From Gemmatimonadota bacterium (GTDB taxonomy: Bacteria > Gemmatimonadota > Gemmatimonadetes > Gemmatimonadales > Gemmatimonadaceae): a DNA stretch of 17,610 nt. Under the pieces are notes generated by a model. That model was not told the DNA's origin, did no database searches, and saw only the letters and a program-made list of their open reading frames with translations. Numbering within the stretch: position 1 is the stretch's first letter; the number at the start of each line of letters is the position of its first letter. Shown here piece after piece: positions 1,314 to 17,610 of this stretch. Made by a program: the position numbers and the translations under genes. The stretch lies in contig JANMLN010000176.1 in the NCBI GenBank assembly GCA_031372565.1, forward strand, positions 1 to 17,610, read 5' to 3'.

Positions 1314-1349
1314 CACGAGCTCCACCTTACCCCGAACCAGTCTCCGACG

Positions 1350-1532
1350 ATGGCCGTCCCGAAGCGCCGTACCTCCAAGCGGAAGAAGCGCGCCCGCAAC
1401 ACCCACAAGGTGGCGCCCCGTATCGTGATCCAGGACTGCCCGCGTTGCGGCAGCAAGAAGCGCCCCCACCGGGTGTGCAATGCTTGCGGCTACTACGCTG
1501 GCGAGCAGCGAGTCGCCGCCGCCGAGGCGTAG
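1350..1532 (+). CDS. rpmF: 50S ribosomal protein L32 (zinc-ribbon form)
   Basis: MAVPKRRTSK...CPRCG...PHRVCNACGYY. Confidence 0.98.
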   Translation: MAVPKRRTSKRKKRARNTHKVAPRIVIQDCPRCGSKKRPHRVCNACGYYAGEQRVAAAEA

Positions 1533-1534
1533 AC

Positions 1535-2551: not shown

Positions 2552-3537
2552 AGCGCCCGCTCGCCCGCATCACGGGGACGGGACACGCCGTGCCGGCGTA
2601 TGCCATGCAGAATGGCGATTTTGCGGCCATCGGCATCGACACCGATGATGCCTGGATTCGCGAGCGCACGGGCATCCGCCAGCGCTATATCGCCCGCGAC
2701 GGCGAAACGTGCGTCTCGCTCGCCGCGGATGCGGCGAAGCAGGCGCTCGCGGATGCCCAGGTCAACGCCGCCGACATCGACCTGATCGTCTTCGGTACCT
2801 GCTCGCCGGACAAGCTGTTGCCTGCGTCCGGTGCGGAGATGCAGGCGATCATCGGGGCGAACAAGGCCGCCGCGTTCGACTTGAACGCCGCATGCACGAG
2901 CTTCGTCTACGGCCTGTCGGTCGCCGAAGGATTCATCGCGTCGGGCGCTGCACGGCAGGTGCTCGTCATCGGTGCCGAGAAGCTCTCCGGCATCATCAAC
3001 TGGAAGGATCGCAACACGTGCGTCCTCTTCGGTGATGGCGCGGGGGCGGCCGTGCTCTCCGCCTCCGACGGCACACGCGGGATCCTCTCGCGCTTCATGC
3101 GCTCCGACGGCAACCTGGCGTCGCTGCTCTACCGACCCAAGGGCGGGTCGGCCGAGCCGGTGACGGCGGAGATGATCGCCGAGGGATCACACTACGTGCA
3201 CATGGCAGGGCGCGAGACGTTCAAGCACGCCGTCTACTCGATGAACGAGGCGCTCGATCACGCGCTCGCCGATGCCGGGATGACCGGCGAGGACATCGAC
3301 CTCCTCATTCCGCATCAGGCCAACCTCCGCATCATCGAAGCGACGGCCAAGCATGGCGGCATCGGCATGGACAAGGTGTTCGTGAACGTGGATCGCTACG
3401 GCAACACGAGCGCGGCGTCGGTGCCGATCGCACTCGACGAAGCCATGCGCTCCGGCCGCATTCAGCCCGGCATGACGGTGATGTTGGTCGCCTTCGGCGC
3501 CGGCTTCACGTGGGCGTCCGCGATTCATCGCTTCTAG
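2548..3537 (+). CDS. fabH: 3-oxoacyl-ACP synthase III
   Basis: ATGA overlap with plsX. WIRERTGI, catalytic NAAC, FGDGAGA, PHQAN, YGNTSAAS and FGAGFTW. Confidence 0.97.
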   Translation: MKRPLARITGTGHAVPAYAMQNGDFAAIGIDTDDAWIRERTGIRQRYIARDGETCVSLAADAAKQALADAQVNAADIDLIVFGTCSPDKLLPASGAEMQAIIGANKAAAFDLNAACTSFVYGLSVAEGFIASGAARQVLVIGAEKLSGIINWKDRNTCVLFGDGAGAAVLSASDGTRGILSRFMRSDGNLASLLYRPKGGSAEPVTAEMIAEGSHYVHMAGRETFKHAVYSMNEALDHALADAGMTGEDIDLLIPHQANLRIIEATAKHGGIGMDKVFVNVDRYGNTSAASVPIALDEAMRSGRIQPGMTVMLVAFGAGFTWASAIHRF

Positions 3538-3542
3538 CGCCC

Positions 3543-4478
3543 ATGCAGGTGGTCCTCCTCTTCCCGGGACAAGGGTCCCAGAAGCCCGGCATGGGGAAGG
3601 ATCTCGCGTGGGCACACCCGGCCGCTGCCGAGGTGTTTCGCTCGCTCGATGCAACGCTCGGGCTCGAGCTCTCGACGCTCGCCTTCGAGGGACCTGAAGA
3701 GGAGCTCACGCGCACGCTGAATGCGCAACCGGCCCTGCTCGCGCACAGCGCGGCGGTCTGGAGCGTGGTCCGCGACGCGGTTGCCCCGCATGTCGTTGCG
3801 GCGGCCGGCCATTCACTCGGGGAGTTCACGGCGTACTTCGCCGCGGGCGCGCTTGGCCTGTCCGAGGCCATTCGACTGGTACGCCGCCGTGGGGAGCTGA
3901 TGTGGGAAACGGGCAACGCGCGACCCGGCGCCATGGCCGCCATCCTCGGCGACATGCACGTTCCGATCGAGTCGATCTGCGAGGAGGCCTCTGCGGCGGG
4001 GCTCGTCGTGCCGGCCAACTACAACTCGCCGGGACAGATCGTGATCTCGGGCGAGGTGGCGGGGGTCGAGAAGGCCATGGAGCTGGCCAAGGCAGCGGGC
4101 GCGAAGCGTGCAATCCGGCTCAACGTGAGCGGAGCGTTTCACTCGCCGCTCATGGAGCCTGCCGAGGAGGGATTGCAGCACGCGCTGTCGGAGGCGGGGA
4201 TCGGTGACGCGCAGTTCCCCGTGTTCGCCAACGTGAGCGCCGAGCCCACCCGGTGGCAGGTGTCGATCATGCATCGGTTGGCCCGCCAGCTGACGCGCCC
4301 CGTGCAGTGGACCGGCGCCGTCTCGCGCATGGCTGCCGCGTACCCGAATGCGCTGTACGTCGAGATGGGGCCGGGGAACGTGCTCTCCGGCCTCGTGCGC
4401 AAGATTGCCCCGGGGGTCCAGACGATGACGTGCGGCACCCCCGCCGAAGTGGACGCCCTCCTGGCCAAGGTGAGCTAG
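3543..4478 (+). CDS. fabD: Malonyl-CoA:ACP transacylase
   Basis: Start MQVVLLFPGQGSQ at 3543. GHSLGE nucleophile motif, ANYNSPGQ and VSGAFHSPLM. Confidence 0.97.
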   Translation: MQVVLLFPGQGSQKPGMGKDLAWAHPAAAEVFRSLDATLGLELSTLAFEGPEEELTRTLNAQPALLAHSAAVWSVVRDAVAPHVVAAAGHSLGEFTAYFAAGALGLSEAIRLVRRRGELMWETGNARPGAMAAILGDMHVPIESICEEASAAGLVVPANYNSPGQIVISGEVAGVEKAMELAKAAGAKRAIRLNVSGAFHSPLMEPAEEGLQHALSEAGIGDAQFPVFANVSAEPTRWQVSIMHRLARQLTRPVQWTGAVSRMAAAYPNALYVEMGPGNVLSGLVRKIAPGVQTMTCGTPAEVDALLAKVS

Positions 4479-4481
4479 CCG

Positions 4482-5225
4482 ATGCCGATGCAGATCGACC
4501 TGAGCGGCAAGGTGGCGCTCGTGACGGGATCGACGCGCGGGATTGGCCGCGCGATCGCCGAGGCGCTGACGGCCGCGGGAGCCAAGGTGGCGGTGTGCGG
4601 GCGTGACCAGGCCAAGGCGGCCGAGGTGGCCGCCCAGCTCGGTCCCGACGCGCGTGGCTTCGGTGCCGACGTGGGCAACGTGGCCTCGGTGCAGCAGTTG
4701 ATCGCCGATGTGGAGGCCGCCTTCGGGCAGCTGGACATCCTGGTGAACAACGCCGGCCTGACCAAGGACAACCTGATGCTCCGGATCAAGGACGATGACT
4801 GGGATCAGGTGATCGACGCCAACCTGCGCGGGGCGTTCGTGGCGATTCGGGCGGCAACGCGCGGCATGATGAAGCGGCGCTGGGGACGCGTGATCAACAT
4901 CGCGTCGGTGGTCGGCATCACGGGCAACAAGGGGCAGGCCAACTACGCCGCGAGCAAGGCGGGGCTGATCGGCTTGACCAAGTCCGTGGCCAAGGAACTC
5001 GCCTCGCGCAACATTCTGGCCAACGTGGTCGCGCCCGGGTTCATCGAGACCGACATGACGGCCGCCATGACCGCCGAAGCGAAGACGGCGACGATGGCGC
5101 AGATTCCGCTCGAGCGGTTGGGGCAACCGTCGGATGTGGCGCAGGCGGTGGTCTTTCTGGCCTCCGATGCGGCCTCGTACATCACGGGGCAGGTGCTCGT
5201 GGTCGACGGCGGGATGGTCATGTAG
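4482..5225 (+). CDS. fabG: 3-oxoacyl-ACP reductase (alternative start at 4488)
   Basis: [23 protein letters not shown] and [10 protein letters not shown], within the fab cluster. Confidence 0.97.
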
Positions 5226-5332
5226 GGCGCAAGCGCTTGCGGGGGTGGGACGCAGGTTCCGCCTCTGGTTCGGACATGGTAGGTTGTTGTGTTGAAGTGC
5301 GTTATCCGATTTTACCCCTGAGGATGTGAGTC

Positions 5333-5572
5333 ATGGCCGACATCGGCGCAAAGGTGAAGGACATCATCGAGAAGGAGCTCGGCGTCGAGCGCGAGAAGCT
5401 GACGAGCGAAGCGAGCTTCATTGAGGATCTGGGGGCCGACAGCCTCGACATCGTCGAACTCGTGATGGAATTCGAGAAGGAGTTCAACATCGACATTCCG
5501 GACGAAGACGCCGAGAAGATCCGCACCGTGGGCGATTCGATGACGTACATCCAGTCCAAGGTCGGCCAGTAG
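5333..5572 (+). CDS. acpP: Acyl carrier protein
   Basis: [14 protein letters not shown] phosphopantetheine motif, with an SD-like GAGGA upstream. Confidence 0.98.
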
Positions 5573-6817
5573 ATGCACAGGCGCGTCGTCGTCACGGGGC
5601 TTGGCCTCGTGACGGCTGTCGGAAACAACGTGCCCGCCTCGTGGGCGGCCCTGCTCGACGGCAAGTCGGGCGGGGGCCCTGTGACGCGCTTTGACGCCTC
5701 CAAGCACCGCGTACAGTTCGCGAACGAGGTCAAGAACTTCGACCCGTTGCTGACGATGGACCGCAAGGAGGTCAAGCGGTCCGATCTCTTCACGCAGTTC
5801 GCGCTCGCGGCCAGCGTCGAAGCGATGACCGATGCCGGGTTCGGCGACGGCACCGGATACGATCCGCTGCGAACCGGGGTCATCATCGGCTCCGGAATCG
5901 GCGGGATCCGCACGTTCGAGGATCAGCTGGACGTCGAACGTTCGATGGGGCCGAACCGCGTCTCGGCCTTCTTCGTGCCGATGTTCATCGGCGACATCGC
6001 CGCCGGCGTCGTCTCGATGCGATATCAGGCCAAGGGACCCAACTATGCGGTCCAGTCTGCCTGCGCCACGAGCGCGCACGCCATCGGTGACGCGTTCCGT
6101 CTCATCGCATACGGCGACGCGGACATCATCATCGCGGGCGGAACGGAAGCAGCCGTGAGCCGCATGGCGATGGCCGGCTTCGCCAACATGCAGGCGCTCT
6201 CGCACAACAATGACAACCCGATGACCGCGAGCCGGCCGTTCGACCGGACACGGGACGGGTTCGTGTTGGGCGAGGGAGCGGGCATCGTGGTGCTCGAGTT
6301 GCTGGACCACGCGCTCGCGCGTGGCGCCACGATCCACGGCGAGATCGTCGGCTATGGCGCAACGGGTGACGCCTACCACCTCACCGGCCAGCCCGAGGAT
6401 CACGAGGGTCTACAGCGCGCCATGCGTCGTGCCATCGAGGACGCGGGCCTCACGCCCGAGGACGTGCAGTACGTGAACGCGCACGGGACCTCGACACCGA
6501 TGAACGATTCGAACGAGATCCGCGCGATCAAGAAGGTGTTCGGGGCGCATGCAGCGAGCCTGAATGTGAGCTCGACCAAGTCGTCGACCGGGCACACGCT
6601 CGGCGCGGCCGGCGCGATCGAGGCCGTGTTCAGCACGCTCGCGCTCAAGCACGGCATCATTCCGCCGACGATCAACCTGCACGATCAGGATCCGGAGTGC
6701 GACCTGAACTGCACGCCGAACGTGCCGGTCCGGCGCGAGATCACCGTGGCCGTCAGCAACTCGGCCGGGTTCGGCGGGCACAACACGAGCCTCGCGATCA
6801 AGAAGTGGACGCCGTAA
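5573..6817 (+). CDS. fabF: 3-oxoacyl-ACP synthase II
   Basis: RRVVVTGLG, SACAT (catalytic Cys), RPFD..RDGFVLGEG, NAHGTST, KSSTGHTLGAAG and GFGGHN. Confidence 0.97.
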   Translation: MHRRVVVTGLGLVTAVGNNVPASWAALLDGKSGGGPVTRFDASKHRVQFANEVKNFDPLLTMDRKEVKRSDLFTQFALAASVEAMTDAGFGDGTGYDPLRTGVIIGSGIGGIRTFEDQLDVERSMGPNRVSAFFVPMFIGDIAAGVVSMRYQAKGPNYAVQSACATSAHAIGDAFRLIAYGDADIIIAGGTEAAVSRMAMAGFANMQALSHNNDNPMTASRPFDRTRDGFVLGEGAGIVVLELLDHALARGATIHGEIVGYGATGDAYHLTGQPEDHEGLQRAMRRAIEDAGLTPEDVQYVNAHGTSTPMNDSNEIRAIKKVFGAHAASLNVSSTKSSTGHTLGAAGAIEAVFSTLALKHGIIPPTINLHDQDPECDLNCTPNVPVRREITVAVSNSAGFGGHNTSLAIKKWTP

Positions 6818-6818
6818 G

Positions 6819-6932
6819 GTCGTCCTGAGCGCAGCGAAGGACCTGCTTGTCCCCGCTGTCGTCCTGAGCGCAGCGAAGGACCTGCTTGTCCCCGCTGTCG
6901 TCCTGAGCGCAGCGAAGGACCTGCTTGTCCCC
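6819..6932. repeat. Tandem array of three 39-bp units, each with a REP-like hairpin
   Basis: Unit GTCGTCCTGAGCGCAGCGAAGGACCTGCTTGTCCCCGCT at 6819-6857 and 6858-6896, plus its first 36 bp at 6897-6932, with no mismatches. Internal stem GTCCT...AGGAC. Confidence 0.97.
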
Positions 6933-6979
6933 ATCCGCTCCGCGACGCCTCCGCGGGAACTCCCGGGCCGCTCGCTGCG

Positions 6980-7015
6980 CTGACCATCGTGGTCAACTCC
7001 CGCTATGATTCGCCG
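6980..7015 (+). promoter_or_regulatory. Putative leaderless promoter of mqnE
   Basis: TATGAT (7004-7009), 6 nt, ATG at 7016. Weak -35 CTGACC (6980-6985) at 18-bp spacing. Confidence 0.5.
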
Positions 7016-8203
7016 ATGCGGCTTCCGCTTGCGAACCTCCCAATCGACCGCCTGCGCGACCCGGCGCTGCTCCCGATCGCGGCCAAGCTGGCCGCCGGTG
7101 AGCGCCTCGATCGCGCCGACGCGCTGGCCTGCTACCGGACCTCGGACCTGATCGGCCTCGGGCTGCTGGCCGACGCCGCCAATCGCGCCCTGAATGGCGA
7201 CACGGTCACCTTCGCGGCCAACCAGCACATCAACCCGACCAACGTCTGCGTCCTTCGTACCACCTGCAAATTCTGCGGGTATGCACGACTGCCCAAGGAA
7301 GCGGGTGCGTACCGGTACACGATGGCCCAGGTGCTCGAGGAAGCGGCGCACGCGGCCGACGGCCTCACGCGCGAGTTCCACATTGTCGGCGGGCTCGACA
7401 TGCAGGCCGGGCTCGCGTACTACGAGGAGATGTTCCGCACCCTCAAGGCGAACTTCCCGCACGTGCACATCAAGGCGCTCACGGCGGTCGAGATCGCGCA
7501 TATCGCACGCATCGAGAAGATGACCTGGTCAGCGGTGCTGACGGCGCTGCGGGCCGCGGGACTCGACACGATGCCGGGTGGGGGCGCCGAGACGTTCAGC
7601 GCCGCGGTGCGCGAGCAGATCGCCGGCAAGAAGCTCGGTGGCGCCGACTACATCGGCGTGCACCGCGCCGCGCACCAGCTGGGCATCCGCTCGAACTGCA
7701 CCATGCTGTACGGCCACGTCGAGACGCTCGAGGACCGCGTCGATCACCTGACCATGCTGCGCGACCTGCAGGACGAAACGGGGGGCTTTCTCGCGTTCAT
7801 TCCGCTGGCCTATCACCCGGACGACAACGAGCTGGGCGCCACGCTGGGGCGTCTCGGGACGGCCACCGGAGGCTCCGATGACCTGCGCATGCTCGCGACC
7901 GGGCGGCTCTTCCTCGACAACTTCCGCCATGTGAAGTCGCACTGGATCATGGTCAGTCAGGCGCTCAGCCAGATCGCGCTGCACTTCGGGGTCAACGACC
8001 TCGAGGGCACCGTGGTGCGCGAGAAGATCTACCATGCCGTCGGCGCCCACACCCCGCAAGGAATGACGCTCGACCAGCTGCTCCAGCTCATCCGCGGAGC
8101 GGGGAAGCAGCCGGCGGAGCGGGATTCGTTCTACAACGTGCTCCGCACCTTCCCGCGCGAGGCGCCTGCCGGCGAGACCTTGGCCTCTGCCGCAGGTGCG
8201 TAG
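7016..8203 (+). CDS. mqnE: Aminofutalosine synthase MqnE (CofH/MqnC-family radical SAM)
   Basis: HINPTNVC...CKFC, EFHIVGG, HIKALTAVEI, MPGGGAE, SNCTMLYGHVE, LQDETGGF.AFIPLAY, HVKSHWIM and DLEGTVVREKIYH; adjacent to mqnA and mqnC. Confidence 0.9.
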   Translation: MRLPLANLPIDRLRDPALLPIAAKLAAGERLDRADALACYRTSDLIGLGLLADAANRALNGDTVTFAANQHINPTNVCVLRTTCKFCGYARLPKEAGAYRYTMAQVLEEAAHAADGLTREFHIVGGLDMQAGLAYYEEMFRTLKANFPHVHIKALTAVEIAHIARIEKMTWSAVLTALRAAGLDTMPGGGAETFSAAVREQIAGKKLGGADYIGVHRAAHQLGIRSNCTMLYGHVETLEDRVDHLTMLRDLQDETGGFLAFIPLAYHPDDNELGATLGRLGTATGGSDDLRMLATGRLFLDNFRHVKSHWIMVSQALSQIALHFGVNDLEGTVVREKIYHAVGAHTPQGMTLDQLLQLIRGAGKQPAERDSFYNVLRTFPREAPAGETLASAAGA

Positions 8204-8340
8204 GGGACGAGTGTCGGCGGGGGAGCGCCTGGGTGGCAGACGCCGGGAACAGCGCTGAGGCCACGACGTTAGCTCCGGACAGGGGCCCGGAACACCCGTC
8301 TCACGACCGTGTCACCGCTGGCCTGCGGCCCCCCCGGACA

Positions 8341-8352
8341 TAGATTCCAAAC
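8341..8352 (+). promoter_or_regulatory. Putative -10 element of a leaderless mqnA transcript
   Basis: TAGATT (8341-8346), 6 nt, ATG at 8353. No convincing -35 and no SD. Confidence 0.4.
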
Positions 8353-9201
8353 ATGCGTGTCGGCCGCATTCCCTACATCAACTGCTACCCGGTCTACGGG
8401 GCCATTGACCGTGGCCTCGTGCCAATGGCGGGAACGCTGGTGGATGGATTGCCAACGCGGCTCAACCGGCTCATGGCCGACGGCGTGCTGGATGTGAGCG
8501 TCGTCTCGGCCGTGGAGTATGCGCAGGACGCCGAGCGCTTCCTGCTGCTGCCGGATCTGGCGATCACCTGCGACGGCCCGGTGCGAAGCGTGATGCTGTT
8601 CAGTCGCGTGCCCGCATCCGAGCTCGGCGGTCGCCGGGTGCTGGTGAGCACCTCCAGCATGACGTCGGTCGAACTCCTCCGCCAGCTCTTCCGCGAGCGG
8701 TGGCACGCGGCGCCCGAGTTCGTACCGGCCGACGCCGAGATCGCCGACGTCGCCAACTTCGGCTCCGAGACGCACGCGGCACGGCTCGTGATCGGCGACG
8801 CGGCGCTCATGCTCGATGCGGCGCGGCGCGGTGACGCGGCGGCCGACGGTGCGCCGCATTATCCGTACGCGTACGATCTGGGCGCGGAGTGGAAGGCATG
8901 GACCGGCCTGCCCTTCGTGTTCGCCGTGTGGGTGGCGCAGCGGACGACACCGGTGGCCGACGCGCTGGCGGTGCATGCGTCGCTGATCGCGTCGCGTGAC
9001 TGGGGGGTCCGGCATCTGGACGAACTCGCCGCACAGGCGCACGCGAACACCGGCATCGCGCAGGTGGAGTGCCGCGAGTACTTCGACGGCCTCGACTATC
9101 GCCTCAGCTACAAGCACCTCGCGGGGCTCACGGAGTTCTTCCGCCGCCTCGTGACCGATGGCCGCGTCCCGGATGGGCGTCTGGCCTTCCTTCCCGCCTG
9201 A
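8353..9201 (+). CDS. mqnA: Chorismate dehydratase MqnA
   Basis: RVGRIPYINCYP, PTRLN, GPVRSV, SSMTS, LVIGDAAL and DLGAEWKAWTGLPFVFAVW. Confidence 0.93.
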   Translation: MRVGRIPYINCYPVYGAIDRGLVPMAGTLVDGLPTRLNRLMADGVLDVSVVSAVEYAQDAERFLLLPDLAITCDGPVRSVMLFSRVPASELGGRRVLVSTSSMTSVELLRQLFRERWHAAPEFVPADAEIADVANFGSETHAARLVIGDAALMLDAARRGDAAADGAPHYPYAYDLGAEWKAWTGLPFVFAVWVAQRTTPVADALAVHASLIASRDWGVRHLDELAAQAHANTGIAQVECREYFDGLDYRLSYKHLAGLTEFFRRLVTDGRVPDGRLAFLPA

Positions 9202-9226
9202 CCGTGCGACCCGTCGCACTCCTGAC

Positions 9227-10276
9227 ATGACGACCGTCTCCCGCGACCTGCTCGACTTCTACACCAACGCGCCGCTCCTCGAACTGGGCGCGGAGGCCGA
9301 CCGTATCCGCCGCGAGAAGCACCCGCACAACACGGTCACGTACATCGTCGACCGGAACATCAACTACACCAACGTGTGCGTGGCCGACTGCGGCTTTTGC
9401 GCCTTCGCGCGGCGGCCCAAGCACGGTGAGGGATACACGCTCTCGTTCGAGCAGATCGGGCAGAAGATCGAGGAGACCAAGGCGCTGGGTGGGGTGCAGA
9501 TCCTCATCCAGGGTGGGCACAACCCGTACATCCCCTTCGACTGGTATCTGGACCTGCTGCGCTACGTCAAGCGCAACCACCCGATCCACATCCATGGCTT
9601 CAGCCCGAGCGAGGTCGACTTCTTCGCGCAGGTGTTCCGCATGGATGCGCGCACGGTCGTGCGCGAACTCAAGGCGGCCGGGCTCGATTCGATTCCCGGC
9701 GGCGGCGGCGAGATTCTCGTCCAGCGCGTGCGGGACATCGTCGCCCCCAAGAAGGCGGGGGCCGACCGGTGGCTCGAGATCATGGGGATCGCGCACGAGG
9801 AAGGCATGAAGACCTCGGTGACCATGATGTACGGCATCGGCGAAACGCTGGCAGAGCGCCTCGAGCACCTGACGCGCGTCGAGGAACTGCAGCAGCGGAC
9901 GGGGGGCTTCACGGCGTTCATCACCTGGCCGCTGCAGCCCGAGAACACGCCGACGATGAGCCACATGCCGAAGACCGACGCGGTGGACTACCTGCGCACC
10001 GTCGCCATCGCGCGCATCGTGCTCGCCCACGTTCCCAACCTGCAGGCGTCGTGGGTCACGATGGGGCTCAAGATCGGGCAGCTCGCCCTCAACTTCGGCT
10101 GCAACGACTTCGGCTCCCTGATGATCGAGGAGAACGTGGTGTCGGCCGCCAACACCACGTATCGCACCACAACCGACGAGATGGAGCGCCTGATTCGCGA
10201 GGCGGGCTTCCTGGTCGCGCGGCGCCGGCAGGACTACTCGATCATCCCGGCGGAACTCGCCGGGGCCGCCGCGTAG
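9227..10276 (+). CDS. mqnC: Cyclic dehypoxanthinyl futalosine synthase MqnC
   Basis: TYIVDRNINYTNVCVADCGFCAF, ILIQGG, SIPGGGGEIL, GGFTAFITW, QASWVTMG and NDFGSLMIEENVV. Start taken at ATG 9227. Confidence 0.94.
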   Translation: MTTVSRDLLDFYTNAPLLELGAEADRIRREKHPHNTVTYIVDRNINYTNVCVADCGFCAFARRPKHGEGYTLSFEQIGQKIEETKALGGVQILIQGGHNPYIPFDWYLDLLRYVKRNHPIHIHGFSPSEVDFFAQVFRMDARTVVRELKAAGLDSIPGGGGEILVQRVRDIVAPKKAGADRWLEIMGIAHEEGMKTSVTMMYGIGETLAERLEHLTRVEELQQRTGGFTAFITWPLQPENTPTMSHMPKTDAVDYLRTVAIARIVLAHVPNLQASWVTMGLKIGQLALNFGCNDFGSLMIEENVVSAANTTYRTTTDEMERLIREAGFLVARRRQDYSIIPAELAGAAA

Positions 10277-10290
10277 GCCGAGTCCGCGAC

Positions 10291-10773
10291 ATGCACCGCA
10301 CCGGGATCGGGTACGACTCGCATCGCTTCGTTGAAGGCGGACCGCTCCGGCTCGGCGGCATCGACATTCCGTCGCCCGTGCGCTGCACCGGCCACTCGGA
10401 TGCGGACGCAGTCTGTCATGCGCTGACCGACGCCGTGCTTGGCGCTGCCGGGGCCGGGGACATCGGCGCGATGTTCCCCGACAATGATCCGGCCAACAAG
10501 GGGCGGGACTCGATCGAGATGCTGACGATCGCCGTCGACCGCCTGCATCGCCTGGGGTGGCATGTGCAGCAAGTGGATGTGACGGTCATCTGCGAACAAC
10601 CGAAGATCGGCCCGCATCGTGAGGCGATGGCAGATCGGATCGCGCACGCGCTGCGCGTCCTGCCAGGCCACGTGAGCGTGAAGGGCAAGACCAACGAGGG
10701 CATGGGGTTCACGGGTCGCGGCGAGGGCATTGCCGTGATGGCCGTCGCGACGATCGCGCCGCGCGACTCGTAG
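10291..10773 (+). CDS. ispF: 2-C-methyl-D-erythritol 2,4-cyclodiphosphate synthase
   Basis: RTGIGYDSHRF, GHSDADAVCHALTDAVLGA, GDIGAMFP and KGKTNEGMGFTGRGEGIA. Confidence 0.97.
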   Translation: MHRTGIGYDSHRFVEGGPLRLGGIDIPSPVRCTGHSDADAVCHALTDAVLGAAGAGDIGAMFPDNDPANKGRDSIEMLTIAVDRLHRLGWHVQQVDVTVICEQPKIGPHREAMADRIAHALRVLPGHVSVKGKTNEGMGFTGRGEGIAVMAVATIAPRDS

Positions 10774-10791
10774 CCCCGGAGACGCGCGCCA

Positions 10792-11286
10792 ATGGACGCG
10801 TTCACCGCGTGGGTACATGCGCTGCCGCCCGTGGCCTACTTCGTCGTCGTGGGGCTGTGCGCCGTGGGGGAGAGCTTCTTCCCGCCGATCCACAACGTGG
10901 TGCTGGCCGCGGCGCTGCTTGCGGCGGCCGGGAAGGTGAACCTGGGCGCGTCGTTCATGGTCATCACCGCAGGTCACCTGGTCGGCATGGCGGCCATTCA
11001 CCTGCTGGTGCGTCGGATGGGCGCGGCGCGACTCCACCAGTGGATCGCGAAGCGGGGCGGCAAGGTGCAACGCGGCGAGCAGCGGGTCCACGAGCTGTAT
11101 GGACGGCTGGGTGTCCCCGCGCTCTTCCTCGCGCGTGTGCTGCCCGGTCCGCGCATGATCGTCGCGCCCGTCACCGGGGCGCTCGCGCTGCCGTTCTGGT
11201 CGAGCCTCATTGCCATGACGGCGGCCACGCCGGTCATGTTGGGCGTGCTCGTCGCATTCCGGGCCGGGTTGTCCCGGTGGTTCTGA
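10792..11286 (+). CDS. DedA/VTT family membrane protein
   Basis: Hydrophobic protein with ESFFPP, G.....LFLARVLPGPR and F......A patterns of DedA, somewhat divergent. Confidence 0.8.
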   Translation: MDAFTAWVHALPPVAYFVVVGLCAVGESFFPPIHNVVLAAALLAAAGKVNLGASFMVITAGHLVGMAAIHLLVRRMGAARLHQWIAKRGGKVQRGEQRVHELYGRLGVPALFLARVLPGPRMIVAPVTGALALPFWSSLIAMTAATPVMLGVLVAFRAGLSRWF

Positions 11287-12191
11287 TCCCGGATCAGGTC
11301 GCGCGCGCCTTCTTCACCGAGCGGTTCGGCGACTTCCTGTCGCTGGAACAGGGTGCCAGCACGCGGACGCACGAGGCGTACGCGCGCGACGTGAAGCGGT
11401 TCGTGTCCTGGTCGGTGGCCAGGCAGACGATGACGCCGGCGGCGCTCACGCCGCGGCTCCTCCGCGACTACCTCTTCTTCCTGAAGGATCTGGGGCTCGC
11501 GCCCGCCTCCATCCGGCGCAACGTGTCGGCGCTGCGCACCTGGTTTCGCTTCCTGCTGGCCGAGGGGATCCTCGCGGGCGATCCGAGCGAGCGGCTGGAG
11601 ACGCCGAAGAAGTGGCGCACGCTGCCCGAGGTCCTGTCGGTGCCGGAGATCACGGCGCTGCTCAACGCGCCATCGCAGGACGATGCGCTCTACTATCGCG
11701 ACAAGGCGATGCTCGAGCTCGCGTACGGAGCCGGGCTTCGGGTCTCCGAATGGATCACGCTCGGCGTACGTGATCTCCTGACCGAGGATGGACTGGTGCG
11801 CGTGTTCGGCAAGGGCGGGAAGGAACGGCTCGTGCCGCTCGGACGCACGGCGGCCGGCGCGGTGGCGCTCTATCTCCGCGAGTTGCGGCCGACGTTGGAG
11901 CACGGGAAGGGGAAAGGGGTGCTCTTCCTGAACCATCGCGGCATGCCGATGTCGCGCATGGGCGCGTGGAAGATCCTGCGGAAGCATGTCGAGGCGGCGG
12001 GCCTCACGAAGGCGGTGACCCCGCACACGCTGCGGCATTCGTTCGCCACGCACCTGCTCGAGGGGGGCGCGGACCTGCGCGCCGTGCAGGAGATGCTCGG
12101 TCACGCCGACATCGGCACGACGCAGATCTACACGCACGTGGACCGCGAGTACCTGCGCACGGTCCACAAGCAGTATCATCCCCGGAGTTGA
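11277..12191 (+). CDS. xerD: Site-specific tyrosine recombinase XerD (start uncertain)
   Basis: RDKAMLELAYGAGLRVSE, GKGGKERLVP, HTLRHSFATHLL and VQEMLGHADIGTTQIYTHV...HPR; the R-K-H-R-H-Y catalytic set is complete. Start taken at GTG 11277, overlapping the DedA stop. Confidence 0.87.
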   Translation: MVLIPDQVARAFFTERFGDFLSLEQGASTRTHEAYARDVKRFVSWSVARQTMTPAALTPRLLRDYLFFLKDLGLAPASIRRNVSALRTWFRFLLAEGILAGDPSERLETPKKWRTLPEVLSVPEITALLNAPSQDDALYYRDKAMLELAYGAGLRVSEWITLGVRDLLTEDGLVRVFGKGGKERLVPLGRTAAGAVALYLRELRPTLEHGKGKGVLFLNHRGMPMSRMGAWKILRKHVEAAGLTKAVTPHTLRHSFATHLLEGGADLRAVQEMLGHADIGTTQIYTHVDREYLRTVHKQYHPRS

Positions 12192-12221
12192 GTTCGTGTG
12201 CGCCCGCCGAGGAACGCAAGC

Positions 12222-12809
12222 ATGAACGGCCCGCTGCTGGTCATCGACAACTACGACTCCTTCACCTTCAATCTCGTGCAGTACTTCGGCGAGTTGGGGG
12301 AGGACCCGATCGTGCGCCGCAACGACGAGATCACGGTTGACGATGTCGGCGCGCTCGCCCCGCGCGCCATCGTGCTCTCGCCGGGGCCATGCACGCCGCG
12401 CGAGGCCGGGATCACGGTCCCGGTCATCCGGCGCTGGGGCGCGAGCATTCCGACGCTTGGTGTCTGTCTCGGCCACCAGGCGATCGGCGAGGCTTACGGC
12501 GGCGCGGTGGTGCGCGCGGGCCGCATCATGCACGGCAAGACGTCACGCATTCGCCACGATGGCACGGGACTGTTCGCGGGCGTGGCCGACGGCTGCGACG
12601 TCATGCGCTACCACTCGCTGCTGGTCGAACGCGCATCGCTGCCGAACGACCTCGCGATCACGGCCGTGGCCGATGACGACGCCACCGAGATTCACGCGTT
12701 GCGCCATCGCACGCATCCCGTGTGGGGGGTGCAGTTCCACCCCGAGTCCGTGTTGACGCCGGACGGGAAGCGGATGCTGGCCAATTTTCTCGCGATGGCG
12801 CGAGGCTAG
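12222..12809 (+). CDS. Aminodeoxychorismate/anthranilate synthase component II (PabA/TrpG glutamine amidotransferase)
   Basis: IDNYDSFTFNL, SPGPCTP, GVCLGHQ, HGK, RYHSL and GVQFHPES. PabA and TrpG cannot be told apart by eye. Confidence 0.95.
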   Translation: MNGPLLVIDNYDSFTFNLVQYFGELGEDPIVRRNDEITVDDVGALAPRAIVLSPGPCTPREAGITVPVIRRWGASIPTLGVCLGHQAIGEAYGGAVVRAGRIMHGKTSRIRHDGTGLFAGVADGCDVMRYHSLLVERASLPNDLAITAVADDDATEIHALRHRTHPVWGVQFHPESVLTPDGKRMLANFLAMARG

Positions 12810-12810
12810 C

Positions 12811-14379
12811 GTGAGGCAAGCGGCCCGCTGGCGGCTGGGAGTCGCGGTCGCCGCACTGGCGTTCGTGCCCGCCGCGCGCGCGCAGCAGCCAGGCGCCCCG
12901 ACGGCGCCAACGGCTCCTGCGACGGCTCCTGCAGTCCGCCCTCCTGCCGGCTTCGACGTGCGCATCCAGGGGGCAGCCCCCGGCATCTCCGGCGACGCCC
13001 TGCGCGACGCGCTCCGCGGCCCGCACACCACGTGGCGTGGAAGCCCGGGGGGCAAGGTACGCGTTCCACGCGACACATCCTTTCCGCATGCGCTCGTCGT
13101 GGCCGGAGGTACGGCATTCTTCCAGGCGCGCGTGCAGGGCGACGTGATCGTCGCCGGCGGTGATCTCGAGCTCGGCCCCGGCGCACGGATCGAGGGGCGC
13201 GCGATCGCCATCGGCGGAGTCGTCAAGCGCAGCCCCTGGGCGTTCGTGCGCGACTCCCTGTTCTCGTACCCACAACACAACTACGACCTCATCGAGCAGG
13301 ACGGCGAGTCGTTGCTGCGCTACCGGCGGCAGCGCGAACTCGCGGGCCAGCTCTTCTTCGAACTGCCGGGCTACTACGGCTGGCAGGAGCTGTCGTACGA
13401 TCGCGTGCAATCCGTCGGTGTCCTCTTCGGCTCCGAGCTGGCGTTCACGGGGTCCGACGTGCTCTTGCAGGCGAGCCTCGGATGGCACGCGCTGTTGGGG
13501 GGCGTCGATCCGGGGCTCCACCTGCGTGCGCCCGTGGGCGCGGCGTGGAAGCTCAACCTTGACGTGCGGCGCGAGACGCGCACCAACGAGGGGTGGATTG
13601 CGGGGCCGGTCGACAACTCGGTGACGACCCTAATCTTCGGGCAGGATGTGCGCAACTATTACCGGGCATGGCGTGCAGAGGCCGCGCTGTCCCGTCCGAT
13701 CGAGTTCCAGCGCGGTCTCATGACGTTGGCCGTGGGCGGCGCGTTCGAGCGGGCGCAGACTCTCGCGACGGCATCACCCGCGATGCCCAGCCTCATCGGA
13801 CAGACGCTGCTCTTCAGCAACCGCCGTCCCAATCCCGCGATCACCGATGGCGACATCGGCTCCGGGTTCGTCGACGTCCGCTACGAGCATCTCGCGAACC
13901 GCACGCCCTGGTCCCTGGGGATCCGCACCGAAGTCCCGTGGCAGACCGTGGGTTCGGCGCGCTGGGTCCAGTCGATCATTCGCGGCTCGCTGCTGATCCC
14001 GAGCGTGCGCACGCAGTACTGGCAGGCCAATGTCCGGGCGATCGTCACGGCGAACGGGCCTGCGCCCGGGCAGCGCCGTCACGGCGTCGGTGGCCCGAGT
14101 TCGATGACGACACGCGACATCCTTGATCGCGTGGGGGATCATCTGCTCTTCGCCGAGCAACTGTACACCTTCCCGATCGACCGGTGGGAGGATCCCCTGT
14201 GGGGCACGCCAAGGTTCTCGTTGCGCCATGTCATCGGCAGCGCCGGCGTCGGCAGCCTGGGCACGTTGAACAACGAGATCGGCATCCGGTTCGACTTCGC
14301 CCTGCTCCGGTCGGATGTCATGTACGATCCGGTCAGCCAGCGCGTGATCTTCTCGTTCGCCGCGGCGATCGGCCCGTGA
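12811..14379 (+). CDS. Exported hypothetical protein: signal peptide, Pro/Ala linker, short beta-helix-like segment, predicted beta-barrel C-terminal region
   Basis: GTG start 1 nt after the upstream stop. Signal peptide ending ARA-QQ, segment VQGDVIVAGGDLELGPGARIEGRAIAIGG, and many alternating amphipathic, aromatic-rich strands downstream. Confidence 0.65.
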   Translation: MRQAARWRLGVAVAALAFVPAARAQQPGAPTAPTAPATAPAVRPPAGFDVRIQGAAPGISGDALRDALRGPHTTWRGSPGGKVRVPRDTSFPHALVVAGGTAFFQARVQGDVIVAGGDLELGPGARIEGRAIAIGGVVKRSPWAFVRDSLFSYPQHNYDLIEQDGESLLRYRRQRELAGQLFFELPGYYGWQELSYDRVQSVGVLFGSELAFTGSDVLLQASLGWHALLGGVDPGLHLRAPVGAAWKLNLDVRRETRTNEGWIAGPVDNSVTTLIFGQDVRNYYRAWRAEAALSRPIEFQRGLMTLAVGGAFERAQTLATASPAMPSLIGQTLLFSNRRPNPAITDGDIGSGFVDVRYEHLANRTPWSLGIRTEVPWQTVGSARWVQSIIRGSLLIPSVRTQYWQANVRAIVTANGPAPGQRRHGVGGPSSMTTRDILDRVGDHLLFAEQLYTFPIDRWEDPLWGTPRFSLRHVIGSAGVGSLGTLNNEIGIRFDFALLRSDVMYDPVSQRVIFSFAAAIGP

Positions 14380-14395
14380 TTGCGCCCTCTCCTCG

Positions 14396-15577
14396 ATGCC
14401 TCGTGCCATGCTGAAGCGCCTGCTCTTCGGTCTGTTTGTCGTGCTGGTTGTCGCTGGTGGCGCGGGGTACCTGCTGGCACCCGGCATCGCCGACCGCCTG
14501 ATGAACAAGCGCGCCGGGGCGCCGCCGTGGGGGGTGAGCGCGCAGGCCGAGTCGGTGACGAAGGCGATCGGCCCGATCGATCTGCACAACGACGTGCTGC
14601 TCTGGGGGCGCGACATCCTGGCGAAGGCCGATCATGGTCACGTCGACCTGCCGCGGCTGCAGGAGGGGCACTTTGCGTTGGCCGTCTTCTCGACCGTCAC
14701 GAAGACGCCGAAGGGGATCAACTACGTCCAGAACGACTCGAGCACCGACCAGATCAGACTGCTGGCCCAGGTGTCGGGATGGCCGGCCGCGGCCATCACG
14801 TATCGGGTCCGTCGTGCCATCCTGCAGGCCGATCGGCTCCACGCGGCCGTCGCGGCGTCACACGGCAACCTGTTGCTGATCACCACGCGGCCGCAGCTCG
14901 ATTCACTCATGGCGATGCGCGCTCGCGGCAGCACGAGTGTGGGCGCCGTGCTGAGCACCGAGGGACTGCATGCCCTTGATGGACAACTGGCCAACGTCGA
15001 CACGCTGTTTGCGCACGGCTTTCGTGCGGCCGGCATCACGCACTTCTTCGACAACGACCTCGGCGGCAGCGCGCACGGCGTCGCCAAGGAAGGCCTGACC
15101 GCGCTCGGCCGTTCCGTCGTGCAGCGCATGGAGCAGCTCGGCATGGTGGTCGATGTCGCGCATGCCTCGCCCACGGTCGTGCGCGAGGTGCTCACGATGG
15201 CCTCCAAGCCGGTGTGGGTGAGCCATGGCGGCGTGCAGGCGGTGTGCCCGGGCCCGCGCAATCTGACGGATGACCAGCTGCGAGCGCTCGCCAGGACGGG
15301 TGGCGTGATCGGCATCGGTTTCTGGGACGGAGCGCTCTGCGATCCGACGCCAGCGAACGCGGCGCGCGCCATCCGCCATGTCGCCAACACCGTGGGCGTC
15401 GACCACGTCGCGCTCGGCTCCGACTGGGACGGCGCGACGACGGAACCGTTCGACGCGAGCGGCATCGGGGTGATCACCGACGCGCTCCTCAAGGAGAAGT
15501 TCACGGGCGAGGAGATCGCGAAGATCCTCCACGGCAATGCCGTGCGCGTGCTACGGGCGGTGCTGCCGGCCCGGTGA
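14396..15577 (+). CDS. Membrane-anchored dipeptidase, peptidase M19 (renal dipeptidase) family (alternative start at 14408)
   Basis: N-terminal TM helix; DLHND, GHVDLPRL, STEG, THFFDN, GLT..G, DVAHAS, SHGG and HVALGSDWDG. Confidence 0.9.
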   Translation: MPRAMLKRLLFGLFVVLVVAGGAGYLLAPGIADRLMNKRAGAPPWGVSAQAESVTKAIGPIDLHNDVLLWGRDILAKADHGHVDLPRLQEGHFALAVFSTVTKTPKGINYVQNDSSTDQIRLLAQVSGWPAAAITYRVRRAILQADRLHAAVAASHGNLLLITTRPQLDSLMAMRARGSTSVGAVLSTEGLHALDGQLANVDTLFAHGFRAAGITHFFDNDLGGSAHGVAKEGLTALGRSVVQRMEQLGMVVDVAHASPTVVREVLTMASKPVWVSHGGVQAVCPGPRNLTDDQLRALARTGGVIGIGFWDGALCDPTPANAARAIRHVANTVGVDHVALGSDWDGATTEPFDASGIGVITDALLKEKFTGEEIAKILHGNAVRVLRAVLPAR

Positions 15578-15583
15578 GGCGTG

Positions 15584-15814
15584 TTACGGACGCTGCCGGA
15601 GTTCCCGCAGGCGTCGGCGCACGAGCCAGAGCACGGCACCGCCGATGAGCAGCGACGGCACGGAGACAACGAACACGGCGATGCGATAGTCGTCGCCGCG
15701 TACCGGGCGGGCGTACGTCAGCAGCGTCATCACGGTGTAGCCACCACCGCACAGCGTCATGAGCAGTCCGACCAATCCCGACGCGAGCAGCGCGGCCGTC
15801 CAGAGTTTCTTCAT
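15584..15814 (-). CDS. 76-aa membrane protein with two hydrophobic segments and a single Cys (C22) in a lipobox-like position
   Basis: ATGA overlap with the radical SAM stop (15811-15814). MKK, a hydrophobic stretch, LMTLC-GGG, a second TM segment and an Arg-rich tail. Confidence 0.72.
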   Translation of the reverse strand: MKKLWTAALLASGLVGLLMTLCGGGYTVMTLLTYARPVRGDDYRIAVFVVSVPSLLIGGAVLWLVRRRLRELRQRP

Positions 15815-17241
15815 GCGCGCTCCAACGGAGTGAACATCGTCGTCACCTCGGCACGTCGTTGATCGAGCACATCGCGACGATCATCCCGGTACAGCAGATT
15901 GAACGCCTCGAACGGGATGATGCGCCCATCAGGCTGGACGAGGTGCACGCAGCTCTTCTTCATTGCGCGCACGTCGAACGCCTCGGCATCCATGAATGCC
16001 ATGATCAGCACGCGAAAGACGTTCGCGTAGCCGAGCCCCTCGGGCACCTGCACGTTGGGCAGGCAGCAGAGCAGGGAGGCGAGGCTCTCCGCCTGTGCCT
16101 CGGGGGAGAGGTTGGTGGCGAACAGCTTGAACACCTCGCCCTTGAGGACCGCGTCCTGCTCGAAGACGATCGTGTTGCGCTCGCCGGCCAGCAGCACTTC
16201 CGGGCTGATGAAGCGCGTGAGCGGCAGGATCCCGTTGGCCGTGCGGAGCGCATAGCCCATCGCGAGCGCGTCGGGGTTGCACGGCACCGGAATGATGTCG
16301 GCCGCCTCGAAGATCGTGCTCTGCTCGAGCAGCTTCGTGCGCACGTCGGTGAGCGTGAGCCGCTCCGTCGTGGGCGCCACTCCCGTGGTCCGTCCGGCGA
16401 ACTGCATCGGCTGGAGGGTCACACCGCGCACGCACGGCTGCTCGGCGGCGTGCGCGATGACTGCGCCGATCTCGTGGTCGTTGACGCCGCGTGCGACCGT
16501 CATCACGAGCGTCGTCGACAGCCCCACCCGGTTGAGCGCGTCCAGCGCCTTCGCGCGCACCTGGCGCAGATCCGCGCCGCGCAGCGTCATGAGCGCATCG
16601 CGCTCGAGCGAGTCGAACTGGAGGTACACCTCGAACCCCGGCGCGTAGGTCGCGAGGCGCTCGGCGAAGCCCGGCTCCTGCGCGATCCGGATGCCGTTGG
16701 TGTTGAGCATCAGGTGGCGAATGGGGCGCCGCTTGGCCGCATCGAGGATGGCGAAGAACTCGGGATGCGTGGTCGGTTCGCCGCCCGAGAGCTGCACCAC
16801 GTCGGGTTCGTGCTCGTTGGCCACGATGGCGTCGAGCATTCGTTCGATCGTGGCGAGGTCGCGCCGTTCGGTGCGATGCGGCCCCGATGCGGCATAGCAG
16901 ACCGGGCAGCTCAGGTTGCAGTGGTCCGTGACCTCGAGAATCGTCAGGCACGAGTGCTGCATGTGGTCCGGGCACAGCCCGCAATCGTACGGGCACCCCC
17001 AGTGCATGGCCGTGTTGAACCGGTACGGCATCTCGGGCGACTTGATGTACACCTCGCGGCCCAACCGCCAGAAGGCGGCGTCACTCGCGACCAGCACCTT
17101 GGACGCGCCGTGTTCGGGGCACCACTTGTGCATCCACACCTGGTTGTCCTTGATGACCACCTTGCCCTCGATGCGACGCAGGCAGTCGCGGCACAGCGTC
17201 ACCACCTGGTCGTAGTAGAGGTACGGACGGACGCGGGGCAT
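15811..17241 (-). CDS. Radical SAM protein of the MJ0619/COG1964 family (tetraether synthase Tes / GDGT-MAS-like), 476 aa
   Basis: Start MPRVRPYLYYD at 17241. N-terminal CRDC...CPEHG, then GCPYDCGLCPDH, radical SAM motif CNLSCPVC (16897-16920), SGGEPT, NTNG, YLQFD and C-terminal MAFMD...D.....SCVH...DGRIIPF. Confidence 0.88.
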   Translation of the reverse strand: MPRVRPYLYYDQVVTLCRDCLRRIEGKVVIKDNQVWMHKWCPEHGASKVLVASDAAFWRLGREVYIKSPEMPYRFNTAMHWGCPYDCGLCPDHMQHSCLTILEVTDHCNLSCPVCYAASGPHRTERRDLATIERMLDAIVANEHEPDVVQLSGGEPTTHPEFFAILDAAKRRPIRHLMLNTNGIRIAQEPGFAERLATYAPGFEVYLQFDSLERDALMTLRGADLRQVRAKALDALNRVGLSTTLVMTVARGVNDHEIGAVIAHAAEQPCVRGVTLQPMQFAGRTTGVAPTTERLTLTDVRTKLLEQSTIFEAADIIPVPCNPDALAMGYALRTANGILPLTRFISPEVLLAGERNTIVFEQDAVLKGEVFKLFATNLSPEAQAESLASLLCCLPNVQVPEGLGYANVFRVLIMAFMDAEAFDVRAMKKSCVHLVQPDGRIIPFEAFNLLYRDDRRDVLDQRRAEVTTMFTPLERA

Positions 17242-17287
17242 GTGGGTCGGATAAGGATGAGGTGCGGACGGAGTCGGGGCCTGCGAA

Positions 17288-17610
17288 TCAGATGGCGAGG
17301 ACGGGTCGAGCGAACGCCCGACGACGGTGGCGGCAGAGCAGGGTATACCACGCGATCCCGACCAGCGCCGCCCACTGGATCGCGGTGAGCCCGCCATACA
17401 GTGCGCTCGGCAGCGTGCCCGCCGCCAGCGCGCCGAACGGCGGCTTGAGCCATTCCAGAGCGAAGCGGAGCGCGGCGTATCCGCCCACGAAGGCCGCGAA
17501 TCGGGCGCCTGGCGTATCCGCCCACCGTGTGCGGACGGCGGCGTACAGCAAGAGCACGGCGGCGATCTCGTACAGGGCCACGGGATGCCTCAAGATCCCG
17601 TCGCCGTAGT
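17288..17610 (-). CDS. Prolipoprotein diacylglyceryl transferase (Lgt)-family protein, C-terminal part (5' end outside the window)
   Basis: The frame is open to the window edge and reads YGDGILRHPVALYE...F..F..GYAALRFALEWLK...GLTAIQW, matching the Lgt HPxQLYE and Y...RF..E motifs. Confidence 0.82.
   Translation of the reverse strand, partial: YGDGILRHPVALYEIAAVLLLYAAVRTRWADTPGARFAAFVGGYAALRFALEWLKPPFGALAAGTLPSALYGGLTAIQWAALVGIAWYTLLCRHRRRAFARPVLAI

Follow-up and report, generated by a model that had tools for sequence, protein, structure and literature searches.

A paralogue of Lgt linked or fused to a Tes-like radical SAM protein and accompanied by small cysteine-bearing membrane proteins: a candidate lipidation module of bacteria

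Results

The three-gene cassette and its split first gene

The stretch of DNA analysed here (the window, 17,610 nucleotides) comes from a Gemmatimonadota bacterium (assembly GCA_031372565.1) and is the whole of contig C91 of a draft genome (G000) of 4.4 Mb and 68% G+C. At its right end lies a cassette of exactly three minus-strand genes, flanked by housekeeping blocks on C91 and on a second contig, C159. The cassette encodes a paralogue of Lgt (the lipoprotein diacylglyceryl transferase), a radical S-adenosylmethionine (SAM) protein related to Tes/GDGT-MAS (GDGT, glycerol dialkyl glycerol tetraether) and a small membrane protein with one cysteine. Its features are as follows, L007 and L008 being two of the related loci described further below.

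C159, 15954-16394, plus strand: N-terminal 147 residues of the Lgt-like protein (Pfam LGT), at the end of contig C159
17288-17610, minus strand: C-terminal 106 residues of the Lgt-family paralogue (Pfam LGT), cut by the contig end; stop TGA at 17288-17290
17242-17287, minus strand: spacer of 46 bp from the Lgt-like stop to the radical SAM start (sequence)
15811-17241, minus strand: radical SAM protein of the Tes/GDGT-MAS family, 476 residues (Pfam, NCBIfam, match to PDB 7TOL, structural model)
16897-16920, minus strand: codons of the CX3CX2C motif of the radical SAM cluster, C108, C112 and C115 (sequence; alignment to GDGT-MAS)
15584-15814, minus strand: membrane protein of 76 residues with two helices and a single cysteine, Cys22 (open reading frame; orthologues at the same place in L007 and L008)
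15749-15751, minus strand: TGC codon of Cys22, the proposed lipid acceptor (sequence)

The initial annotation had described three co-oriented, tightly packed genes, with a 46-bp gap and then an ATGA overlap, converging on a housekeeping block, and the coordinates confirm this arrangement. The radical SAM gene starts with the ATG at 17241 and ends with the TGA at 15811-15813, which overlaps the ATG of the small open reading frame (ORF; 15814-15812); the longest frame opens at 17397, but alignments to orthologues begin at residue 1 as counted from 17241. Six bases separate the stop of the small ORF from that of a convergent M19 dipeptidase gene (14396-15577). The Lgt homologue that had been placed in the window is present, but only with its last 106 residues, the first 147 being on C159. 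By eye, the end of C159 and the reverse-complemented end of C91 have 7 bases in common, and a scripted test for overlaps of 11-200 bases between these ends found none. The Lgt-like frame is unbroken across the junction and colinear with the L007 orthologue, and the GTG at C159:15954 corresponds to the starts of the orthologues; the two halves are therefore probably one gene split over two contigs, with a product of about 252 residues. A search of Rfam with 2 kb around this start on C159 gave no match at E <= 0.1. Among sequencing runs, a search listed three DNA data sets, all of one study, and none of RNA.

A second, divergent Lgt

Pfam LGT matches three places in this genome: a canonical, full lgt on contig C63 (155 bits), the window fragment (30.1 bits against a cut-off of 24.9, profile positions 158-233) and the C159 fragment (37.7 bits, profile positions 51-146). 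The cassette gene is thus a dedicated paralogue, as had been suggested from the window alone, and not the only, canonical lgt of the genome. Its full-length orthologues score 72-88 bits with the same profile. The genome also carries two tandem lspA genes (Peptidase_A8) on the same strand (C15:9121-10087; 109 and 116 bits).

Published work on E. coli Lgt describes seven helices, an N-terminal strand in a periplasmic head, and a proposed catalytic centre of R143, R239 and a hydrogen-bond network that faces the periplasm (PMC4728403). We aligned 70 Lgt-like sequences with E. coli Lgt (5AZB/5AZC, PF01790), whose numbering is used here. G142, R143, G154, Y235 and R239 are invariant in all 70, while H196, E243 (as D/E) and R246 (as K/R) are each kept in 68/70; the part encoded in the window holds an RHP...YE segment together with the equivalents of Y235, R239 and E243. 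N146 is replaced by Cys in 70/70, likewise in the genome's canonical Lgt, and of the 57 sequences aligned at Y26, 55 have His. The model of the L007 orthologue (predicted local distance difference test score, pLDDT, of 91.5) has seven helices, and its sole PDB match at E <= 0.001 is 5AZB (2.3e-7; template-modelling score, TM, of 0.56/0.52), a moderate similarity. With these residues, the Lgt-like protein retains the core by which Lgt binds phosphatidylglycerol and catalyses transfer. It differs from the E. coli enzyme in being shorter (about 250 residues against 291), a second copy, and tied to a radical SAM enzyme by gene linkage or fusion. By the topology of E. coli Lgt, the C-terminus of the paralogue, and hence a radical SAM domain fused to it, should be cytoplasmic.

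A full-length relative of GDGT-MAS

The radical SAM protein matches Pfam Radical_SAM (79 bits) and Zn_ribbon_HMPTM (60 bits), and it matches GDGT-MAS in the PDB (7TOL) with an E of 8.9e-62. A model built from 91 sequences (pLDDT 88, with residues 353-367 and 388-399 below 50) superposes at full length, over 507-513 alignment columns, on 7TOM (TM 0.81) and 7TOL (0.80), whereas all other PDB chains match the radical SAM core only (TM <= 0.41). Domain order and fold are those of Tes/GDGT-MAS, the archaeal tetraether lipid synthase (MJ0619; NF045702), and three of the four metal sites of GDGT-MAS are retained: a rubredoxin-like zinc ribbon at the N-terminus (C17, C20, C41, H44; CX2CX20CX2H), an N-terminal auxiliary cluster motif (C83, C87, C90; CX3CX2C, with H93) and the radical SAM cluster, all as the motifs are given for GDGT-MAS (PMC9433317). 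Over 81 family sequences, every cysteine of these three sites is kept (81/81), and H44 is kept in 79/81. Towards the C-terminus the family has its own invariant cysteines, C321, C392, C393 and C431; the C392-C393 pair falls in a stretch modelled at pLDDT < 50 (388-399), and the family-specific stretch 353-399 as a whole is poorly modelled. Among 93 full-length representatives, 49 combine C430, C431 and C445 (47 of these also with C321), and the C-terminal cysteine pattern of the window protein is found in only six others.

The best NCBIfam match is TrsS, a radical SAM (seleno)protein (NF045646), which aligns end-to-end (residues 14-453 on profile positions 4-435 of 441) at 310.7 bits against a cut-off of 490, followed by Tes at 257.6 against 450; the protein is below both cut-offs and so belongs to neither named family. 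Of 48 representatives scanned, none reaches the Tes cut-off of 450 bits, and 12 pass that of TrsS, none of which has the C-terminal cysteine set of the window protein. One protein that passes as TrsS, P0235, is fused to a DVU_1556-type methyltransferase. Fusions to such a methyltransferase, to a MobA-like NTP transferase or to DUF5714 occur in the superfamily among P0235, P0247 and P0256, and the Tes/TrsS scaffold therefore combines with several partner enzymes. The genome has only one Tes-like gene. Two other labels were rejected: a role in defence, as PADLOC gave only weak pVip matches over the radical SAM core (39-43 bits) and none for the other two proteins, and pterin methyltransferase, since the pterin role of MJ0619 was not corroborated (PMC9433317).

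Linkage of the two enzymes and natural fusions

Related loci were taken as the best 80 of 585 confirmed stretches from a scan of species-representative genomes (54-81% identity), and an Lgt-like gene was sought within the fetched DNA by tblastn with the two Lgt halves and then with a hidden Markov model (HMM). By tblastn it is present in 70 of the 80 loci, upstream and co-oriented in 66, upstream on the opposite strand in 3 and downstream in 1; less than 150 bp separate the two genes in 45 of the 66. The HMM added L066, which makes 71/80, and among the nine others four have little DNA on one side. One locus without an Lgt-like gene, L017, has upstream of its radical SAM gene an ORF (5427-5990) whose Cys-rich end resembles a second radical SAM/SPASM tail.

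The two enzymes also occur as one chain. In a library clustered at 50% identity, of which the best 150 representatives were first examined, P0123 (733 residues) and P0204 (671 residues) each combine the LGT, Zn_ribbon_HMPTM and Radical_SAM domains; a query with the N-terminal 330 residues of P0123 retrieved 58 proteins, 49 of them with all three domains (618-825 residues). These fusions extend down to 35% identity, and some are named at source as Tepidisphaeraceae or Verrucomicrobiota. Because it is kept over such divergence, the fusion is not an artefact of gene calling. P0204 is a fusion within a clade that has the usual C430, C431 and C445 pattern. The arrangement is far beyond chance: the linkage supposed in the initial annotation is conserved in 71/80 loci and in 49 fusion clusters, and the fusions show that the two enzymes act together.

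Small membrane proteins with a conserved cysteine

The 76-residue protein of the window has a basic N-terminus with a Lys pair, a first helix ending in Cys22 (LMTLCGGG) and, after a loop, a second helix followed by an Arg-rich tail; a hydropathy scan finds two hydrophobic segments, and neither Pfam nor NCBIfam has a family for it. Orthologues stand at the equivalent position in L007 and L008 (42 and 44% identity). In an alignment of 15 relatives with an N-terminal-type cysteine, from Gemmatimonadota and Proteobacteria, this cysteine is near-invariant (14/15) and is the sole such column besides Met1. Window protein and aligned relatives have the layout of a prolipoprotein (basic n-region, hydrophobic h-region, Cys), with Leu in the window protein where a canonical lipobox has G/A/S. 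By the positive-inside rule, Cys22 would lie at the outer end of an inside-to-outside helix, much like the cysteine of a lipoprotein signal peptide, which is likewise preceded by basic residues and a hydrophobic helix. The small proteins found beside the cassette in Bacteroidota, Planctomycetota and many Acidobacteriota have the cysteine where their last helix ends, a few residues from the C-terminus. The proposed acceptor cysteine is often internal or near the C-terminus, unlike that of known Lgt substrates.

How general such proteins are was measured with a strict regular expression (a Cys preceded by four residues that are small or hydrophobic and followed by G/S/A/T/W/F/N, at a hydrophobic segment) on ORFs of 40-130 residues on the cassette strand. 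Seventy ORFs with the motif flank the cassette in at least 53 of the 80 loci: 41 follow the radical SAM gene downstream, 17 precede the Lgt-like gene and 12 stand between the two. Their density is 0.605 per kb of free DNA near the cassette against 0.038 per kb in the distal flanks (both strands), an enrichment of about 16-fold, and the opposite strand of the same near-cassette intervals gave 8 hits. Two or more motif ORFs occur in 15/80 loci, and in 30/70 ORFs the cysteine is 4-16 residues from the C-terminal end. With orthologues, a conserved cysteine and this enrichment, the small cysteine-bearing protein belongs to the module, as the initial annotation had it. A predicted complex of the two L007 orthologues, Lgt-like and small, each entered as an alignment, scored 0.00 in a run whose controls were not folded.

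Some loci have further neighbours at the small ORF. In seven proteobacterial loci (L015, L020, L021, L022, L023, L027 and L038), a gene for a protein that joins a major facilitator superfamily (MFS) transporter to an acyltransferase ends at, or runs into, the small Cys ORF that precedes the Lgt-like gene, the two sharing 4 bases in L020. We take this architecture to be LplT/Aas-like, and it could point to lysolipid recycling. In three loci the radical SAM gene is followed directly by a gene for an Rce1-like CPBP (CAAX-type) intramembrane protease (L022:3559-3951, L027:3492-3884 and L038:7467-8138), the L027 call being made from sequence likeness alone. Among the 38 neighbouring membrane ORFs of 110-330 residues that were scanned, of 53 listed, none was an ICMT/PEMT-like methyltransferase. 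In its manner of working only, eukaryotic CaaX processing offers a parallel, with a thioether lipid on a Cys near the C-terminus and an Rce1 protease; it differs in that the cassette has no prenyltransferase and the small protein of the window has its Cys near the N-terminus.

A rare cassette in its phylum, spread over many others

Homologues of the radical SAM protein number in the thousands, with 72-88% identity among the best 120, and those close homologues that are named come from Gemmatimonadaceae, Burkholderiales and other Proteobacteria. The 80 loci span at least ten phyla, including Gemmatimonadota, Proteobacteria, Acidobacteriota, Bacteroidota, Planctomycetota and Myxococcota, together with Elusimicrobiota, Omnitrophota, Fibrobacterota, a metagenome-assembled genome (MAG) of Baltobacteraceae and two MAGs labelled as archaeal. 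At E <= 1e-80 the gene is present in only 2/201 sampled genomes of the phylum, the present one counted, and in 0/38 genomes of the same family. Since it is rare in the phylum, yet 75-77% identical to proteobacterial homologues, we regard the cassette as an accessory, laterally moving element. An empty site was sought in the relatives through the neighbouring dipeptidase, which found a match in 7/31 at 50-56% identity, too distant for synteny.

The two archaeal-labelled MAGs, L062 (Halobacteriales) and L077 (Poseidoniales), have a complete cassette of the bacterial type, Lgt-like and Cys-tailed proteins included. Archaea are reported to be without Lgt homologues (PMC12462473), and these two cassettes are either mis-binned or transferred into archaea.

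Discussion

Our data show that an Lgt paralogue, a Tes-like radical SAM enzyme and small cysteine-bearing membrane proteins form a functional unit. This module is widespread and without a described function. In print, the bacterial Tes homologues are sequence matches only, proposed as enzymes of branched GDGT (brGDGT) synthesis (PMC8941075, PMC9433317, PMC13159169, PMC11868695, PMC13459092), and the passages of these five papers that deal with them contain no mention of Lgt. A full-text literature search for Lgt or diacylglyceryl transferase together with tetraether, GDGT-MAS or radical SAM returned no relevant paper.

We propose that the cassette is a dedicated module for the lipidation of small proteins with radical chemistry on the lipid tails, a reading to which we give an even chance; the lipid acceptor and donor, the membrane topology and every chemical step are what we infer from the features above. 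The Lgt paralogue, as an integral membrane transferase, would take a group of the diacylglyceryl type from a phospholipid and attach it to the Cys22 thiol of the small protein. The Tes-like enzyme would contact the transferase physically on the cytoplasmic side, at the transferase C-terminus, and could take a hydrogen from an alkyl chain, either the donor's or that of the attached lipid, so that tails would be cross-linked or otherwise altered. The product would be a small membrane protein with a tail-modified, thioether-linked lipid. Lipidation of Cys22 by the paralogue and a radical step on an alkyl chain make up the most economical mechanism.

Several observations weigh against this proposal. 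The first group concerns the transferase. H103 of the HGGL motif, essential in E. coli and proposed there to bind the peptide (PMC4728403), is His in 0/70 paralogues (V/L/M/I in 69, a gap in one), only the GGL part being kept; the genome's canonical Lgt also lacks it and has Trp there. The periplasmic head and the N-terminal arm are shortened, and the orthologues stay below every NCBIfam cut-off for Lgt, with 30-50 bits in the TIGR00544/PRK00052 equivalogs (cut-off 118.9), under which the genome's canonical Lgt also falls (105.7 bits). The second group concerns the small proteins. The residue before the cysteine is G/A/S in only 20/70 motif ORFs and is usually bulky, so that cleavage by LspA is doubtful; the regular expression found no motif ORF in 27/80 loci, some of these being contig ends or misses of the pattern. 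In the acidobacterial loci L045, L051, L053, L057 and L080, the Cys-motif protein is replaced by a four-helix protein of 111-125 residues just upstream of the radical SAM gene, which has no Pfam match and no Cys in 4/5 (one Cys in L051), and this argues against a universal Cys acceptor. Five of the 80 loci, with at least 4.8 kb of DNA on both sides, have no Lgt-like gene. On the side of the link, four of these five genomes, searched with the family alignment, have the paralogue elsewhere (183-291 bits) and one has nothing, weaker matches at 21-68 bits being presumably canonical lgt; two of the four unlinked paralogues (L096 and L098) adjoin a small Cys-bearing membrane ORF.

The likeness to Tes/GDGT-MAS put forward in the initial annotation stands as a full-length structural relationship but does not extend to the C-terminal site, and this too counts against the proposed radical chemistry. 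At the positions aligned with the GDGT-MAS site near Met439, the window protein has I413, M414, S430, C431 and E445: of the C-terminal Cys ligands of GDGT-MAS (C438, C455/C456 and C470, as inferred from the alignment), C438, C455 and C470 are replaced by Ile, Ser and Glu, and only C431, aligned with C456, is kept, so that three of four positions are changed. With C321 and C392-C393 invariant in their place, we read the C-terminal cysteine set as probably rewired ligands, not as simple loss. The protein also differs from archaeal Tes in being bacterial, Lgt-linked and accessory rather than core. Finally, the active site of Lgt is periplasmic (PMC4728403) whereas the radical SAM domain is expected in the cytoplasm, a difficulty for the action of both on one molecule.

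A bold answer to the outward transferase site and the inward radical SAM domain would be a coupling across the midplane of the bilayer. The diacylglyceryl group would sit on the outer-leaflet Cys, and the tethered Tes-like domain would join one of its tails to the tail of an inner-leaflet phospholipid, giving a protein-anchored membrane-spanning lipid, that is, a covalent cross-bilayer tether on a dedicated microprotein. We consider this extension a long shot.

Among the alternatives to protein lipidation, the one that survives best, though we hold it unlikely, is a pathway for a free lipid. The pair would make a modified membrane lipid (for example a brGDGT precursor, or a glycerolipid that is macrocyclic or spans the membrane), for which the Lgt-like protein would merely bind or hand over phosphatidylglycerol, with the small proteins as accessory subunits or regulators. 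Such a pathway would suit a full-length relative of the lipid enzyme GDGT-MAS and the absence of Cys from the small protein at four of the five acidobacterial loci, and published hypotheses place bacterial Tes homologues in brGDGT synthesis (PMC8941075, PMC11868695); the published record also holds a point in the other direction, as Tes homologues are given for only 3/14 of the acidobacteria that produce iso-diabolic acid (PMC13159169). The invariance of the Lgt transfer residues and the enrichment of lipobox-like Cys ORFs speak against this pathway, and a cassette present in so few genomes of the phylum is more in keeping with a specialised product than with a membrane lipid made in bulk. Among the related loci are also the aerobic isolates Chitinophaga, Maribacter and Tenacibaculum, which to our knowledge are not known for membrane-spanning lipids.

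Distinctly improbable, in our view, is a maturation in the manner of ribosomally synthesised and post-translationally modified peptides (RiPPs), in which the radical SAM enzyme would modify the small protein itself, for example by a thioether at the Cys, and the Lgt-like protein would add a lipid to give a lipopeptide natural product. The tandem paralogous small ORFs of the 15 loci noted above are typical of precursor peptides, and cysteines so near the end of the C-terminal-type proteins would also fit; the small proteins themselves, however, are membrane proteins of two to four helices, not leader-core peptides, and their Cys is predicted at the outer face with the radical SAM domain in the cytoplasm. 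After GDGT-MAS, the next structural matches of the radical SAM protein are the maturases SkfB and SuiB, which share the radical SAM core only (TM 0.37-0.38), whereas the whole fold follows the lipid enzyme; Pfam reports neither a SPASM domain nor an RRE (RiPP recognition element) in the protein. The ordinary annotation, a housekeeping lgt beside an unrelated radical SAM (pterin methyltransferase) gene and a chance small ORF, for which speak the name 7,8-dihydro-6-hydroxymethylpterin dimethyltransferase that JGI gives to many homologues and the plenty of spurious ORFs in high-GC DNA, is refuted by the canonical lgt elsewhere, the conserved link and the fusions, and is further opposed by the co-located orthologues with a conserved Cys and by the pterin role of MJ0619 that Lloyd et al. 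did not corroborate (PMC9433317).

A further bacterial comparison is the membrane-spanning lipid synthase Mss of Thermotoga and Thermoanaerobacter, likewise a radical SAM enzyme and said to couple fatty acid tails; by its description, in passages that report no Lgt link, Mss is only remotely related to Tes and found in anaerobes (PMC13159169). The window belongs to a large, highly conserved clade of bacterial Tes homologues that are linked or fused to an Lgt paralogue and accompanied by small Cys membrane proteins. Bacterial Tes homologues serve as candidate markers of the organisms that make branched GDGTs, on which widely used palaeotemperature and pH proxies are based (PMC8941075, PMC11868695). 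The context of this clade points to protein-linked lipid chemistry over bulk tetraether synthesis, which would alter the reading of gene counts. If our proposal is true, this would be the first lipoprotein-type transferase coupled to radical chemistry on a lipid; if the protein-anchored membrane-spanning version is true, it would be a new class of protein lipidation, and a large share of the environmental bacterial Tes homologues surveyed would not be brGDGT synthases. With its natural fusions and with carriers in culture (Chitinophaga, Maribacter, Psychroserpens and Brachymonas), the module is open to direct test.

Other genes of the window and of contig C159

The rest of the window, from 1142 to 15577, holds ordinary plus-strand genes, on which the cassette converges from the right end.

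1142-6817, plus strand: plsX-fabH-fabD-fabG-acpP-fabF, a complete cluster for making fatty acids and phospholipids, at 9 kb from the cassette
6989-10276, plus strand: menaquinone genes of the futalosine type, with two CofH/MqnC-type radical SAM proteins around a VitK2_biosynth protein
10809-12191, plus strand: tyrosine recombinase (Phage_integrase with a SAM-like N-domain) among the housekeeping genes

Because the neighbours differ in other loci, we read no link between the fab cluster and the cassette. The listed start of the recombinase ORF is probably too early, since its domains begin at residue 171. Besides the M19 dipeptidase, the plus strand encodes a DedA-type protein, a glutamine amidotransferase and a protein of 522 residues without assignment. 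On C159, the genes upstream of the cassette are divergent; one ORF is kdsB-like by eye, and further on lie pyrG and a gene of the DAHP (3-deoxy-D-arabino-heptulosonate 7-phosphate) synthase family.

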